Positions 3,785 through 24,367 of a stretch of 29,063 nucleotides of DNA are shown in pieces. The notes under the pieces were generated by a model. That model was not told the origin of the DNA, made no database searches, and saw nothing but the letters and a program-made list of their open reading frames with translations. Position numbers and translations under genes: made by a program. Within the stretch, counting starts at the first letter, position 1, and each line of letters begins with the position of its first letter. This stretch comes from Verrucomicrobiota bacterium (GTDB taxonomy: Bacteria; Verrucomicrobiota; Verrucomicrobiia; Limisphaerales; CANJXF01), in contig JBBQRQ010000063.1 of the NCBI GenBank assembly GCA_038214755.1, forward strand, positions 1 to 29,063. The letters are read 5' to 3'.

Positions 3785-3935
3785 GTAGGGCAGGCTTTCG
3801 AGCCTGCCGGTTCCCGAAACTTTCCAGTTTCGAGAAAACGGCTTTCCAGTTTCGGGAAAGCGGCGCGGGATGGTTCACACGGTGGCGAGGGACTGGAAAG
3901 TCCCCCGAACCGGCAGGCTCGAAAGCCTGCCCTAC
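3785..3935. repeat. REPIN-like element, GTAGGGCAGGC family
   Basis: gtagggcaggctttcgagcctgccggttc ... gaaccggcaggctcgaaagcctgccctac (perfect 29-bp terminal IR) with inner hairpins carrying TTTCCA/TGGAAA loops. Confidence 0.9.
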
Positions 3936-15028: not shown

Positions 15029-16282
15029 TCACCCGCCGATGCAACTCATGCTGCGTTGCGGCTGGACGAACTCAGGCTCGCCGATGTGATGACGATCTTC
15101 CTTTTTCCACACCACATTTCGCAATTCATTTTGGATCGCTTCGTCGTCGGAACCGTCGCGCAGCAGCGAGCGGAAATCATGTTCGCCCGCGCTGAAGAGA
15201 CAGGTGCGAATTTTTCCATCGGCCATCAGTCGGATACGATTGCAATTCCCGCAAAATGGCTCGCTCACCGGCGCGATGATGCCGATTTCTCCTCGGCCAT
15301 CGGCGAACGTCCAGCGTTTGGCCGTTTCGGATTTGTTTTGAGATTTTATCCGAAGGAGCGCGGACAGCTTGTCTGCGTTTTGAAATGGATCACGCGAACT
15401 CGCGGACAGGCTGTCCGCGCTCCTAGAAAAATGCGTTTCCAATCGCTGTAAAATTTCCTTCGCCGAAACCACCAGTTCTTTTTGCCAGGCGCGCCCGGAA
15501 TCCAAGGGCATGAACTCGATAAATCTCAGCCCAAGATTTTTTTCGCGCGCAAATTCCGCCAGCGTTTCAATTTCGTGATCGTTGATTCCCCGGATAATGA
15601 CCGCGTTCACTTTGACCGGATTCAGTCCGAGTTGTTGCGCCAGTTCGATGCTTTGTAAAACTTCATTCAGTCCATCGCGCCCCGTAATTTTTTTGAAATT
15701 TTCACGGTCGAGCGAATCCATGCTGAAACTGATTCGCTTCAGTCCCGCGTCGCGCAACGCCTTGGCTTTTTTTGGAAAAAGAAATCCATTGGTCGTCATG
15801 GCCAGATCGGTGATGCCGGGAATACGCGCAATTTTTCCGACGAGGATTTCGATCTGCTGACGGAGAAGCGGTTCACCTCCGGTCAAACGAATTTTTTGAA
15901 TTCCCAAATCCGCGGCGATGCGCACCAGTCGTTCGATTTCTTCAAACGACAAAATTTTTTCGTGCGAAGTCCATTGTCGCGCGATGGGCGTGGGGTTGGG
16001 AAGATTGGCCCAACGGCCGCGATAAAAATTCAGAGCGGCCTCGGTTTCGGGCAGGCAATACAGGCAGCGAAAATTGCAGCGGTCGGTCACGCTCACCCGC
16101 AGGTCTCGCATGACGCGGCCATACGAATCCGTGAGGAGAGAATTCGTGGAAAGAAAATTTGGCGCGTTGAACCCTTGAACCGTAGCCGCCGCCGTGAGAA
16201 GGCGGACCTGATCTGCCAAGGGAGTTTCCGCCTCCTCACGTCGGCGGCTACGCGCTGGTTCATGGGGAGGAGATTGAATCAT
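15029..16282 (-). CDS. moaA: GTP 3',8-cyclase MoaA (radical SAM), with two repeat-derived in-frame insertions
   Basis: DSYGR..DLRVSVTDRCNFRCLYC, RLTGGEPL, RFIEFMP, FCGNCNRIRL..DG.IRTCL, C-terminal MSCIGG; start ATG overlaps the upstream TGA (ATGA). Confidence 0.95.
   Translation of the reverse strand: MIQSPPHEPARSRRREEAETPLADQVRLLTAAATVQGFNAPNFLSTNSLLTDSYGRVMRDLRVSVTDRCNFRCLYCLPETEAALNFYRGRWANLPNPTPIARQWTSHEKILSFEEIERLVRIAADLGIQKIRLTGGEPLLRQQIEILVGKIARIPGITDLAMTTNGFLFPKKAKALRDAGLKRISFSMDSLDRENFKKITGRDGLNEVLQSIELAQQLGLNPVKVNAVIIRGINDHEIETLAEFAREKNLGLRFIEFMPLDSGRAWQKELVVSAKEILQRLETHFSRSADSLSASSRDPFQNADKLSALLRIKSQNKSETAKRWTFADGRGEIGIIAPVSEPFCGNCNRIRLMADGKIRTCLFSAGEHDFRSLLRDGSDDEAIQNELRNVVWKKEDRHHIGEPEFVQPQRSMSCIGG
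15354..15424. repeat. GGAGCGCGGAC-family REPIN inside the moaA coding sequence
   Basis: aggagcgcggacagcttgtctgcg ... cgcggacaggctgtccgcgctcct; same ends as 13563-13681 and 27389-27485. Confidence 0.88.
16182..16251. repeat. GTAGCCGCCG-family REPIN in the 5' part of the moaA ORF
   Basis: gtagccgccgccgtgagaaggcgga ... tccgcctcctcacgtcggcggctac, flanked by ccttgaacc / ggttcatgg. Confidence 0.9.
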
Positions 16283-18739: not shown

Positions 18740-18968
18740 ATTTACGATTTACGATTTACGCGCGGCCTCTGTAGTGGGGCAGGCTTCCAGCCTGCCACTG
18801 CGGGCATCCTGCCCGCGAACTGCTGAAACGCGGGCTGGAAGCCCGCAGAGGCAGACAAGGATGTCTGCCCCACTAATTCTGCCTCACTGTATTGCCTGCA
18901 AGATTCCGATATTTCTAAACGCTAGGTTTTGTCTTTCGCTCGTAAATCGTAACTCTTAAATCGTAAAT
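18740..18968. repeat. Composite: inverted ATTTACG/CGTAAAT 7-mer arrays enclosing a GTGGGGCAG REPIN (18772-18875)
   Basis: (atttacg)x3 on the left; cgtaaat cgtaact cttaaat cgtaaat on the right; inner tagtggggcaggcttccagcctgcc...ggcagacaaggatgtctgccccacta. Confidence 0.82.
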
Positions 18969-18971
18969 CCC

Positions 18972-20054
18972 TCATTTCGCGGGAGGTTTTTCAAGCGGTA
19001 TCGGTAAAAGTTTTTTTTCTCTCTTTTCTTCGCCGATGATTTCCACCTTCGCTTCTTTCTTAATCTTCTCGAAATATTCCGGCACCAATTTCTGCGTTTC
19101 CTGTTGGGCCAAACCTTCCTTCAAATCCGGCAGGACTTTGGCAAACTCCACTTTTTCCGGCGGAATTTTTTGGAGCAACTTGATGACGTGAAAACCGAGT
19201 CGCGTCTCCACCACGTCGCTGACTTGATTCGTCTTGAGCGAAAAGGCGGCGGTCTCAAATTCCGGCACGCCCAACTCGCCTCGCGCAAAAGGAGGCAGTT
19301 CGCCATCTTTTGCTTTTGATCCCGGGTCTTCCGAAAATTCTTTCGCCAGCTTCCCGAAATCTTCGCCCTTCGCCGCGCGCTCCTTCAATCTTTTCGCCAG
19401 TTGCTCCTGCTCTTTTTTTTTCGCGGCGGGCAAAGGTTGTCCGCTGTTTTTTTCCACAGTGGAAATTAAAATGTGCGCCACGCGAACCGTTTCCGGTCGC
19501 TCGAAACGCGCCGGATTTTCGTCATAAAACTTTTTGGCCTGTTCCTCGGTGATGTTGACGTTGGCCTTTACCTCGCGCTGGATGACGACTTCGCAAAGGG
19601 TTTGCTCGTAAGCGCGGGTGCGAAACTGTTCGGGCGAGATGCCCGTGGCTTTTAACTGTTGAACGAACATCTCTTCGTTGGGAAATTCTTTTTTCGCGTT
19701 GGCGACCAGTTTATCAGTGCCCTCGCTGGCTTTCTTTTTGTCTTCCTCGGTCGCCCGGCCCATCAACACTTTCGTAATCACCAGCCGCTGCAAAAGGTTG
19801 GATTCGACGTTCGAGCGTTCTCCCTCGGTCACCGTGTTCCCACGCGACGCCATGTTGGCTTTATAATCGATGAAGGTGTTTTCAACTTCGCTCTGTCTAA
19901 TTTCAAAACCTGTGCCTTTGGCCACGACCGGGTCCGCAAAAAGAGCGTTTGGTTTGTTCGTCGCCGCCGGATTTGTCACAGCGACAACATTTGCGCCGGA
20001 GAGAAGCGTCAGGCCAAGAACACTCGCGTAGGTTAATTTCAAAATATTTTTCAT
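18972..20054 (-). CDS. Exported parvulin-type peptidyl-prolyl isomerase (PrsA/SurA-like foldase)
   Basis: Signal peptide; VRVAHILI, GEDFGKLAKEFSEDPGS..DGEL, PEFETAAF, VSDVVETRLGFHVIKL. Confidence 0.9.
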   Translation of the reverse strand: MKNILKLTYASVLGLTLLSGANVVAVTNPAATNKPNALFADPVVAKGTGFEIRQSEVENTFIDYKANMASRGNTVTEGERSNVESNLLQRLVITKVLMGRATEEDKKKASEGTDKLVANAKKEFPNEEMFVQQLKATGISPEQFRTRAYEQTLCEVVIQREVKANVNITEEQAKKFYDENPARFERPETVRVAHILISTVEKNSGQPLPAAKKKEQEQLAKRLKERAAKGEDFGKLAKEFSEDPGSKAKDGELPPFARGELGVPEFETAAFSLKTNQVSDVVETRLGFHVIKLLQKIPPEKVEFAKVLPDLKEGLAQQETQKLVPEYFEKIKKEAKVEIIGEEKREKKLLPIPLEKPPAK

Positions 20055-21777: not shown

Positions 21778-23646
21778 ATGACAACGCCGAACGCAGACTC
21801 AGAAAAAAATAAAACCACAGAGTCGGTGCAAGCCAACGCCAGCGCGAACATTCACCTGCAATCCGGCGCGTCGGATTTTATTCGTGACATCGTTGCGAAG
21901 GATTTGCAGTCGGGGAAATACCAAAAGATCGTCACGCGTTTTCCGCCGGAGCCAAATGGATATTTGCACATTGGCCACGCCAAATCCATTTGTCTGAATT
22001 TCGGAATCGCGCGCGAATTCAACGGAGTTTGCAATCTGCGGATGGATGATACAAATCCAGCGAAGGAAGATCTCGAATATGTTGATTCAATTCAGGAAGA
22101 CGTCCGCTGGTTAATCGGCGGTTGGGCGGAAGAGGTTCTTGGTTTAGTCAAGGTAGGGCAGGCGTCTCGCCTGCCTGGCGAGCGCGCAGACGCGAGCAGG
22201 GAGGCATCGCCTCTTGTTTCGCGGGAGATGGGCAGGCGAGACGGCTGCCCTACTTTAGAACCCTTTTACGCTTCAGATTATTTCGAGCAGATTTTTAATT
22301 ACGCCATCGAACTGATCAAAGCGGGCAAAGCCTACGTCTGCGATTTATCTCCGAAAGAAACTGACGAATATCGCGGCGCGCCGGATCGCCCTGGAAAAGA
22401 GAGTCCGTGGCGCAATCGTTCCATTGCAGAGAACCTCGATTTGTTTCAGCGAATGCGCGCGGGCGAATTTCCCGATGGCGCGAGAACGTTGCGCGCGAAA
22501 ATCGACATGGCCTCGCCGAATGTCTGGTTGCGCGACCCGTTGTTGTATCGCATTCGTCACACCGCGCATCATCACACCGGCGATGCCTGGTGCATCTATC
22601 CGATGTACGATTTCGCGCATTGCCTGAGCGACAGCATCGAAGGCGTGACCCATTCGATTTGCACTCTGGAATTTGAAGTGCATCGACCGCTTTACGATTG
22701 GATTTTGGAAAATTTGCCCGTGCCGCAACCGCGTCCGCACCAATACGAATTCGCGCGGCTCAATTTAACTTTCACCGTGATGAGCAAACGCAAGCTCATG
22801 CAACTCGTCACCGAAAAACTCGTCACCGGCTGGGACGATCCGCGAATGCCGACGATTTCTGGTTTGCGTCGTCGCGGTGTGACCGCCAGTGCGTTGCGCA
22901 ATTTTGCCTATCACATTGGCGTCACGAAATACAACGGCCTCACCGATGTGGCCGTGCTCGAACACGCCATTCGCGAAGACTTGAATAAAAATGCGCTGCG
23001 TCGGCTCGCCGTGTTGCGACCGATCAAAGTGGTCATCACGAATTTTCCTGAAAGTAAAATTGAGGAACTTGACGCGGCCAATAATCCCGAAGACGAGAAC
23101 GCGGGCAAACGCAAAATTCCTTTCAGCCGCGAAATTTTTATTGAGCAGGATGATTTCAAAGAAACGCCTCCGCCAAAATATTTTCGCCTGCGCCCCGGCG
23201 GCGAAGTGCGTTTGAAATACGCCTACATCATCAAGTGCGAGGAAGTGATTAAAGATGAGTCTGGCCACCTAATCGAACTTCGCTGCACCGCCGATCTCGA
23301 CAGCAAAACCGGCGGCGCAACGGCGGGCCGCAAAATTAAAGGAACGATTCATTGGGTCAGCGTCGCTCATGCGATTGATGCCGAAGTGCGCCTTTACGAC
23401 CGCCTCTTCACCGTGGCCGAACCGGATGCCGCCGGTGATTTCAAAGCGCACATCAATCCGAATTCCCTCGAAGTCGTGACCGCGAAACTTGAACCCAGTT
23501 TGAAAAATGCAAAACCCGAAGAGCGTTACCAATTCGAGCGCCTCGCCTATTTCGCTTTGGATAAAGACAGCGCGTCTGGCCATTTGGTCTTTAACCGCAC
23601 GATCACGTTGAAAGACGCCTGGGCGAAGGAAGCGCAGAAGATTTAG
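21778..23646 (+). CDS. glnS: Glutamine-tRNA ligase with a repeat-derived in-frame insertion
   Basis: [58 protein letters not shown]-like YQFERLAYF. Confidence 0.96.
22153..22253. repeat. GTAGGGCAGGC-family REPIN inside the glnS coding sequence
   Basis: gtagggcaggcgtctcgcctgcc ... ggcaggcgagacggctgccctac; same family as 3785-3935. Confidence 0.92.
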
Positions 23647-23679
23647 TGGTTCGGCTCGGAGAGGCGTCATCATGGTCAG

Positions 23680-23771
23680 GACGACAAAGTGTCAAAACGA
23701 ACTCTCTTTTTCTCGCGTTGCCCCGAAATCCGATCGGCAAGATTTTGAAAACGGCTTTGCGCAAAATGGCC
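23680..23771 (+). pseudogene. Possible relic of an acyl-CoA ligase (AMP-binding) C terminus
   Basis: DDKVSKRTLFF then, after a 1-nt frame slip, ALPRNPIGKILKTALRKMA; resembles YKVPK...LPRNxxGKILK. Confidence 0.45.
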
Positions 23772-23834
23772 AGAAACCCTTTTAGGCAAGTAGTCGCGCT
23801 TGACCCAAAGAGAAACGCTTGCAACTATTTTTCT

Positions 23835-24068
23835 ATGCCAAAGGCACTCGAAGAAGTCACCAAAGAAGCGATGGATCTTTCGCCACGTCAGAGGATCGCA
23901 CTCGCAGGATTCCTGCTGGAGAGCGCCGATGCAGCGGGTGAGCCCGGGGCTGAGACTGCATGGGATTCGGAGATTCGTGACCGCATCCGCGCCATAGACG
24001 AAGGCCGCGTGGTCGGCATCGCCTACGAGGGCGTCATGCGAGAGGCAGAGAGGCGATTGGCTCCGTGA
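23835..24068 (+). CDS. Putative addiction-module antitoxin
   Basis: AMDLSPRQRIALAGFLLES...AWDSEIRDRIRAIDEGRVVGI pattern; GTGA overlap with the toxin; start at ATG 23835. Confidence 0.82.
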   Translation: MPKALEEVTKEAMDLSPRQRIALAGFLLESADAAGEPGAETAWDSEIRDRIRAIDEGRVVGIAYEGVMREAERRLAP

Positions 24069-24367
24069 CGATCCGTTTCGTCGATGAGGTTCAGCGTGAG
24101 TTTCTTGATGCGATCTCAGAATACGAGGAGGCTCGCGGTGGACTCGGAGAACGCTTCAAGGATGAGGTGGATCGATGCGTCTTGTGGATTGCGGACCATC
24201 CGGAGCTATACCCCCTGCGACCCGGATCATACCGTCGCATCAACCTGCGCGTATTTCCTTATTACATACCTTACATCGTCAGAGAGCAGACTCTTTGGAT
24301 TTTAGCCATAGCTCATGCCAGCCGCAGACCGCTGTATTGGATTTCCCGGCGCAACGAAATCACCTAA
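24065..24367 (+). CDS. RelE/ParE-family toxin
   Basis: EFLDAISEYEE..GLGERFKDEV..IADHP..YRRINLRVFPYYIPY..ILAIAHASRRPLYW. Confidence 0.87.
   Translation: MTIRFVDEVQREFLDAISEYEEARGGLGERFKDEVDRCVLWIADHPELYPLRPGSYRRINLRVFPYYIPYIVREQTLWILAIAHASRRPLYWISRRNEIT

Follow-up and report, generated by a model that had tools for sequence, protein, structure and literature searches.

How does a glutaminyl-tRNA synthetase come to carry a palindromic repeat in its reading frame, and what is found at the same place in its relatives? The window analyzed here is a 29,063-nucleotide stretch of a Verrucomicrobiota genome; the names of homologs point to this phylum and probably to Limisphaerales. Its gene at 21778–23646 on the + strand was identified as glnS, encoding glutaminyl-tRNA synthetase (GlnRS) of 622 residues, by TIGR00440, Pfam and Foldseek. 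The product scored 712 bits against TIGR00440, whose cut-off is 426, and contains PF00749, PF03950 and PF20974. When its model was compared by Foldseek with the GlnRS structures 5bnz (P. aeruginosa) and 4jxx (E. coli), the TM-scores by target length were 0.94–0.96. The HIGH motif (residues 64–67; 21967–21978, +) and the MSKRK motif, the KMSKS equivalent (residues 335–339; 22780–22794, +), are intact, as the first-pass annotation of this DNA had stated. The equivalog model, the HIGH and KMSKS-type motifs and the class Ib fold with beta-barrel anticodon domains all place the product in GlnRS. It is the sole GlnRS among the 3 PF00749 matches in the genome; the other two are a GluRS that is incomplete at the end of its contig and a shorter paralog.

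Compared with three genus mates, glnS outside the variable loop described below has dN/dS values of 0.06, 0.08 and 0.13. Its terminal branch is not long, and the dN/dS on it (0.11) is similar to that of its sisters. To judge from these ratios, glnS is under purifying selection. The gene looks active, and the range of 0.06–0.13 gives indirect support for tRNA-Gln charging.

The insert in glnS is a REPIN, an inverted doublet of GTAG REPs, at 22153–22253 (+). The 101-bp element begins in phase 0 of the ORF at 21778–23646 and codes for residues V126–T159, so the earlier claim of a REPIN read in frame was borne out. The left REP arm (22153–22175, +) is an exact match to the commonest arm of a repeat family designated here as family A. 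The inverted right arm (22231–22253, -) has one mismatch to the family arm. The variable spacer between them (22176–22230, +) contains two small hairpins and is partly similar to the genome copies C30 and C53. With three more bases at each end, the arms (22150–22175 and 22231–22256) are 92% complementary. The RNA fold of the REPIN has an energy of -75.2 kcal/mol (z -8.7), and 0 of 200 shuffled sequences were as stable.

Both 23-nt arms have the features of a GTAG-type REP, namely a stem-loop, the GTAG tetranucleotide at one end and dispersed copies. Two inverted REPs, a variable spacer, a length of about 100 bp and a long hairpin likewise fit a REPIN. The left arm has 25 matches in the genome at ≤2 mismatches, 7 of them exact, compared with 0 for a reversed control, and 38 at ≤3. 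About 3 bases past each GTAG end are also conserved: of the 38 arms, 32 have an A at -2 and 34 have one at -3. By these flanks the REPIN probably extends to 22150–22256. In a check for a target-site duplication of the MITE type, the flanks 22150–22152 and 22254–22256 were inverted and not direct repeats, there being no close empty allele for comparison. A contig of sequencing run X1 spans 21930–22603 with 0 differences from the insert region; this support is not independent because X1 may be the source sample. Run X2 does not cover the insert.

Two further doublets of the window had been assigned to the same family, at 3785 and 18774. The intergenic doublets at 3785–3935 and 18771–18874 (end approximate), neither given a strand, do share the head and stem of the glnS element. 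However, their REP loops differ and they fall in other clusters, so that each represents a related but different subfamily.

The arms of the glnS element have 0 and 1 mismatch while dS to the nearest relatives is about 1. By this comparison the arms are young relative to the splits from those relatives, and the element would be either much younger than those splits or refreshed.

The first-pass annotation regarded the insert as a recent loop on a canonical segment of about 10 residues. This length is correct for distant GlnRS, in which the inter-motif segment has 8–10 residues in 59 of 67 readable sequences from 150 returned. The bacterial enzymes of E. coli (1gtr/4jxx) and P. aeruginosa (5bnz) share the fold, the HIGH and MSK motifs and 53–55% identity in structural alignment with our GlnRS, but their loop has about 9 residues and ours 51. 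It is nevertheless the wrong baseline here. The insert lies in a lineage-specific variable loop (residues 113–163; 22114–22266, +), and relatives already have mostly 34–52 residues in it. Among the 120 best homologs, 118 were readable, and all of these have a loop of 34–81 residues, mostly 46–47. The loops of the genus mates have 18, 18, 34, 34 and 45 residues and contain no doublet. In L021, L023, L025, L133 and L170 the loop is only 18 residues long. Three relatives (L028–L030) have the canonical 9 residues; L028 is from a genome marked unpublished (G009). The motif that closes the long loop was found in 233 of 401 sampled genomes of the order. Five distant GlnRS of different lineages have 15–24 residues in the loop, which indicates a generally permissive site. 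We take the loop to link the first half of the Rossmann fold to the acceptor-binding domain.

Thus, the description of a recent repeat-derived insert holds, as the sequence is REP-derived and its arms are young, but no loop of 34 residues was gained on a base of 10. By these lengths, the repeat would have taken the place of about 17 residues in a loop that was already there, making it about 17 residues longer than the 34-residue form.

An AlphaFold model of the GlnRS, resting on an alignment of 84 diverse sequences, has a pLDDT of 90 and a pTM of 0.86. Values of pLDDT below 50 occur only at residues 1–29, 131–158 and 619–622. The core is therefore predicted to be intact and the insert to be disordered. 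An earlier model from 45 close homologs was poor (pLDDT 62.7) and was not used.

The GlnRS of relatives was compared for empty sites and other repeats, as had been proposed, and loops without a tail, several REP families and heptamers were all seen. In these comparisons the tail of the loop is a slot with REP doublets of at least four families or 7-base tandem repeats. A junction pattern matched 11 of the 401 genomes, and 9 of the matches are true REP doublets just before a conserved Glu-Pro-Phe, in 8 GTDB families. The other two, L112 and L116, are not REPs and were dropped. Since the pattern fixes the end and the phase of the element, 9 of 233 is a lower bound. A stricter pattern applied to all species genomes found 10 loci, comprising 8 doublets and 2 single REPs.

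Other samples were not selected on the slot except for their centre genome. In one genus, doublets of families A, B, C and D occupy 4 of 26 loci, one of them the chosen centre. Four of 16 loci of one family of genomes have doublets, and in another genus one of 10 loci does, together with probable remnants. Tandem repeats of 7 bases occur in 15 of 96 slots compared with 0 of 1014 downstream windows of the same genes, a count that includes a few genomes two times and three without the long loop. A conserved non-repeat form of the loop with 52 residues is found in L127, L128, L138, L142, L145, L147, L152, L186 and L187. It is scattered over branches of two GTDB families and may be a fixed functional tail or the result of glnS recombination. 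L049 and L054 are titled Bifidobacteriaceae and Candidatus Acidoferrum, but by glnS they group within the Verrucomicrobiota clade that has the long loop, which points to mislabelling, misbinning or transfer.

A protein tree was built without the loop from 87 rows (100 minus 10 duplicate and 3 short). The 21 REP carriers on it, which were over-sampled by design, need 15 changes compared with 19.1 ± 1.3 when shuffled, and 1 of 300 shuffles was as low. On this tree the carriers appear scattered, with some inheritance. In a 26-row subset, an origin in a single clade was rejected for the REP carriers (p-AU 2.3e-5) and for family A (p-AU 0.002), p values that are optimistic because the rows were picked after the first tree was seen. 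Sisters at dS 0.4–0.6 differ in what fills the slot: a heptamer in L161 and family B in L162, family C in L052 and a heptamer in L139, family B in L050 and family D in L148 (a weakly supported pair), and family A in L113 with a different state in L008.

In five genomes, the arm of the filler was counted in its own host and gave 25, 166, 32, 21 and 1 copies. The filler is thus a resident repeat family in four of the five; the exception is family C, whose one match in its host G429 is the glnS copy itself. Family D, with 21 copies in its host, is absent (0 copies) from the other four genomes. Family B is common to all five, with 62 copies in the genome studied here (G000) and 32 in its host G253, which holds 47 of another family. 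As B is commoner in G000 and G253 is richer in another family, the family found in the slot need not be the dominant one of its genome.

These data are best explained by a fresh, tolerated and near-neutral insertion with recurrent turnover of the slot, which we consider probable. A non-autonomous REPIN of a resident family would have been mobilized, most likely by a RAYT (Y1/HUH) transposase of the genome, and would have inserted into a surface loop that GlnRS has in this lineage, in the disposable tail, displacing about 17 native residues. Landing would be filtered by reading frame and protein tolerance, and erosion would proceed by in-frame deletion. The insert could survive because its phase is free of stops (GTAG gives TAG in one of three) and the loop is outside the folded core. 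If translated, the peptide would be a disordered, near-neutral passenger; the precedent is a guanylate kinase bearing an RPE, which was expressed and active according to the accessible part of PMC2229807. Across the order, the slot would be filled, eroded and refilled independently by each genome's own repeats, and we infer that the gains were independent and not older inserts that had been converted. The heptamer tracts would have another source, probably slippage or recombination.

The proposed transposase has candidates. The genome has 17 matches to Y1_Tnp (RAYT-type), some of them flanked by doublets. RAYTs bind GTAG-tagged hairpins and cut and rejoin single-stranded DNA (Corneloup et al. 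2021, PMC8266576, available portion). No exact cognate of family A was found among the RAYTs of this genome, the nearest RAYT-flanking arms differing from the family A arm at 3–4 of 23 bases. These nearest arms flank a RAYT embedded in a DinG/YoaA helicase (L043), and a DinG-RAYT protein of another genome (P0135) contains the family A peptide twice.

Three Y1/RAYT domains lie within long host ORFs with in-frame REPs around them: a fucokinase-like gene (C33:13409-17728), the DinG/YoaA helicase (C64:9580-12468) and a 998-aa gene (C88, ~19561-19815). The idea that gene-fused RAYTs steer REPs into genes was weakened by the last of these, whose RAYT is flanked by a family with only 2 of 106 copies internal.

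An older history is less likely, in which one REPIN formed or entered the slot in the long-loop ancestor, decayed in most descendants and in others had its arms refreshed with the current family by RAYT-driven or recombinational replacement. The site would then have housed REPINs for a long time and would not record repeated fresh hits. Much of what supports it concerns the junctions. The element nearly always ends 1–7 bases before the conserved Glu-Pro-Phe, and random landing alone does not explain so nearly fixed an end. Many element-free slots also resemble phase-0 REPINs in starting with Val-Gly, and they finish with Thr/Ser-Leu before Glu-Pro-Phe. By eye, L117, L122 and L123 resemble eroded elements beside a fresh one in L121. 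The partial clustering of carriers would fit as well, since the tree cannot separate gain from loss, and for different RPEs at shared sites a common origin is preferred in the part of PMC3767692 available. However, two reading phases occur among the fillers, some of which are 7-base tandem repeats with no relation to REPs. The left junctions differ, with G000 and P0086 having lost most of the native loop that others kept, and the spacers differ between families. We retain recurrent near-neutral insertion as the better account.

The glnS insert is not the only one in the window. Another GTAG family forms a REP doublet in frame right after the start codon of moaA (16176–16252, -). The start position is as in relatives, which begin at the same methionine without the insert. 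A doublet of a third family lies in frame inside moaA (15353–15425, -), where the loop has 41 aa compared with 19 aa in L197, the one relative that could be read by the pattern. Three coding insertions from three families in 29 kb had been proposed, and all three are present.

The first-pass annotation further suggested that repeats donate peptides on the scale of the genome. A doublet scan of the genome found 473 elements, of which 68 are well inside 59 genes, 19 are near gene ends, 58 are over a gene edge and 328 are intergenic. Genes were called by a crude hexamer model (4002 genes, 81% cover). The scan misses non-GTAG families, including the internal moaA insert, and has false positives such as C16:2232 and some purine-rich repeats, so that a handful of the 68 internal elements are false. 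Coding insertion is thus genome-wide, and the frame test that had been called for gave internal doublets in phases 35/32/1, as expected because GTAG gives a stop in the third phase. Donation as a useful function is another matter: nothing supports it, and the genome-scale pattern has already been published for Opitutus terrae (PMC3733652).

Genes contain far fewer doublets than their share of the genome would give: 14% are internal, compared with a gene cover of 81%. Nine genes were hit twice, compared with 1.1 expected and a maximum of 6 in 5000 simulations. Depletion and clustering fit purifying selection with a few tolerant loops. The host genes are long (median 794 aa compared with 480 aa). 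Of the 59 hosts, 40 were scanned and 31 matched NCBIfam models; many of these matches are interrupted or extended where the element lies. Named hosts include SMC, two UvrA, GatB, RF3, IspG, HemL, RecG, ValRS, AlaRS, AroA, CysJ, CopA and DnaE2. When all frequent repeats were counted, 189 segments lie inside 150 of the 4002 genes.

The family of the glnS element behaves differently. Family A has 18 of 25 elements internal to genes (72%), 4 terminal and 3 intergenic, compared with 50 of 448 internal for the others (Fisher p 2e-11), a test with loose clusters on a family picked by the finding itself. Near-neutral insertion does not account for this bias; family A may be old and have shed its copies between genes. 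A 40-residue query from P0086 found the same peptide in 33 other proteins. Carriers include LigA, PurL, Mfd, a U32 protease, HrpB, IleRS, UvrC and DinG-RAYT fusions. In other genomes, LigA, PurL, the U32 protease and Mfd each have the peptide at a fixed site.

We can only speculate that Limisphaerales-like Verrucomicrobiota have REPIN families with protein-coding loops as their main habitat, which keep fixed housekeeping addresses (GlnRS, LigA, PurL, Mfd, UvrA) by overwriting earlier inserts again and again, possibly via gene-embedded RAYTs. If this doubtful idea were true, some protein loops would be maintained by repeat turnover.

It is quite improbable that the inserts are there because they are selected, with a hairpin or cruciform, or a disordered linker, tuning glnS expression, pausing at the domain border, or the binding of gyrase or RAYT. 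The great stability of the mRNA hairpin and the intragenic bias of family A could be read in this way. So could the recurrence of its peptide at fixed sites elsewhere and the same gene classes here and in O. terrae (UvrA, DnaE2, RF3, Hrp helicases); pure chance is itself doubted for repair genes in the accessible text of PMC3733652. However, such recurrence is equally expected from a few tolerant loops in long genes, and doublets are strongly depleted from genes overall. About 96% of the sampled genomes lack a doublet at the slot by the pattern used, some relatives lack the whole loop, and the heptamer fillers form no such hairpin.

Could GlnRS be dispensable here? The genome contains gatB. 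Only two PF00152 loci were found in it; we take these to be AspRS and LysRS, and on that assumption GatCAB is probably needed for Asn. The available portion of PMC3927822 gives GlnRS with gatCAB as the state of 4/4 Verrucomicrobia. It also indicates that the two together leave GluRS discrimination unsettled, although three tested species did discriminate. As gatB is present and the specificity of such a class is not predictable (PMC3927822), the essentiality of glnS is uncertain. It is nevertheless very improbable that the insert is an assembly artefact, or that glnS is inactive with Gln-tRNA made by GluRS and GatCAB: the presence of gatB, the support of the insert by contigs of a possible source run only and the depth of the spanning contig (17.6 compared with 22–34 for its neighbors) are outweighed by elements at the same site in many independent assemblies, by the low dN/dS and intact motifs, and by the probable need of GatCAB for Asn and its company with GlnRS in the phylum.

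In-frame repeats are also found in GatB (C15:60220-61716) and in the short GluRS paralog (C4:22511-22626), so that both possible routes to Gln-tRNA are repeat-decorated. ValRS (C56:8071-12252) has two inserts and AlaRS (C77:18509-21592) has one or more. A LysRS-like gene (C126:5908-6164; L063, L064) has an insert of ~85–105 residues that is AT-richer than the genome and has no obvious palindrome. ARAGORN found one tRNA-Gln (CTG), no TTG isoacceptor and no tRNA-Ile, probably owing to an incomplete assembly.

The closest known system is O. terrae, the richest genome for intragenic GTAG REPs with ~70 cases (Di Nocera et al. 2013, PMC3733652, in the part available). It is of the same phylum and has GTAG REPs and in-frame dimers coding for 20–30 or more residues, in the same gene classes (UvrA, DnaE2, RF3, HrpA, PurL, DNA ligase). 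The same portion describes intragenic REPs in tRNA synthetases of X. oryzae, E. litoralis and S. alaskensis. It also notes that recB of two Xanthomonas species has different REPs at nearly one position. In comparison with that set, the REP families here are different, and the part covered has no series of a single site across species on this scale. A text search for "glutamin" gave 0 matches to a glutaminyl-tRNA synthetase entry in the accessible supplements of that paper, and heptamer repeats are not treated in the parts covered.

Inverted REPs, a variable spacer, a length of about 100 bp, the GTAG tag and REP-flanked RAYT genes are shared with the REPIN/RAYT systems. REPINs are described in the accessible text of Bertels and Rainey (bioRxiv 10.1101/2021.07.10.451892) as "almost exclusively in extragenic space". 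In contrast, 14% of doublets and 72% of family A are inside genes here, and several RAYTs, unlike those described, are embedded in genes.

Palindromes in frame, in conserved proteins and in solvent-exposed loops are also known from the Rickettsia RPE and Wolbachia WPE (PMC3767692, PMC2229807, in the portions available, which cite the earlier RPE work of Ogata 2000 and Abergel 2006). Orthologs, PheRS beta among them, can have different RPE groups at shared or neighboring sites, and the available part of PMC3767692 leaves hotspot and common origin undecided. RPEs belong to other sequence families, have no GTAG tag and reside in a reduced intracellular genome, whereas the genome here has 5.1 Mb and many RAYTs. 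RPE-4 and RPE-6 are of the CGTC type according to the accessible part of PMC3733652. The glnS insert appears to work like an RPE. We do not class it with the Rickettsia-specific families RPE-1 to RPE-7, given its Verrucomicrobiota host and its GTAG tag.

A literature search found no paper that treats this loop of GlnRS or the REPs of this order, and neither the GlnRS slot series nor a 72% intragenic REP family; subscription papers, bioRxiv supplements and later parts of the Di Nocera tables may hold more. The available part of a paper on PVC indels (PMC3000692) does not mention repeats or palindromes.

In-frame palindromes in essential proteins are already known, and for this phylum the single glnS insert is nothing unusual. 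What deserves to be followed is the refilled slot and the coding-biased family, and the value is comparative. Natural variants of one enzyme loop, often found in sister species, have no tail, a native tail, one of several heptamer tails or one of at least four REPIN tails. The GlnRS slot is thus a natural series for how repeats enter and leave proteins. With it, the neutrality of inserts and the Rickettsia question of whether such sites are hotspots or share an origin (PMC3767692) both become testable in an easily assayed enzyme. A mostly intragenic REP family would qualify the claim that REPINs live almost only between genes. The inserts also give unrelated proteins shared 30-residue peptides, and in this group they can lead searches for homologs and the calling of start codons astray.

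Some minor observations were made on other repeats and neighboring genes. Frequent short repeats make up about 2.9% of the genome, and families of 7-base tandem repeats are among the commonest 16-mers, often in frame in genes. The RF3 insert (C31:8798-10558) covers residues 318–343 of 586, and the O. terrae listing gives 304–318 of 583. The second of two adjacent UvrA (C9:59823-62717) has its insert at 569–596, compared with 1601–1623 of 1995 aa in O. terrae. Compared by coordinates only, the RF3 and UvrA positions may match those of O. terrae. Directly 3′ of glnS is a pair of an antitoxin (PF09720) and a ParE toxin (PF05016) at 23646–24367 (+).
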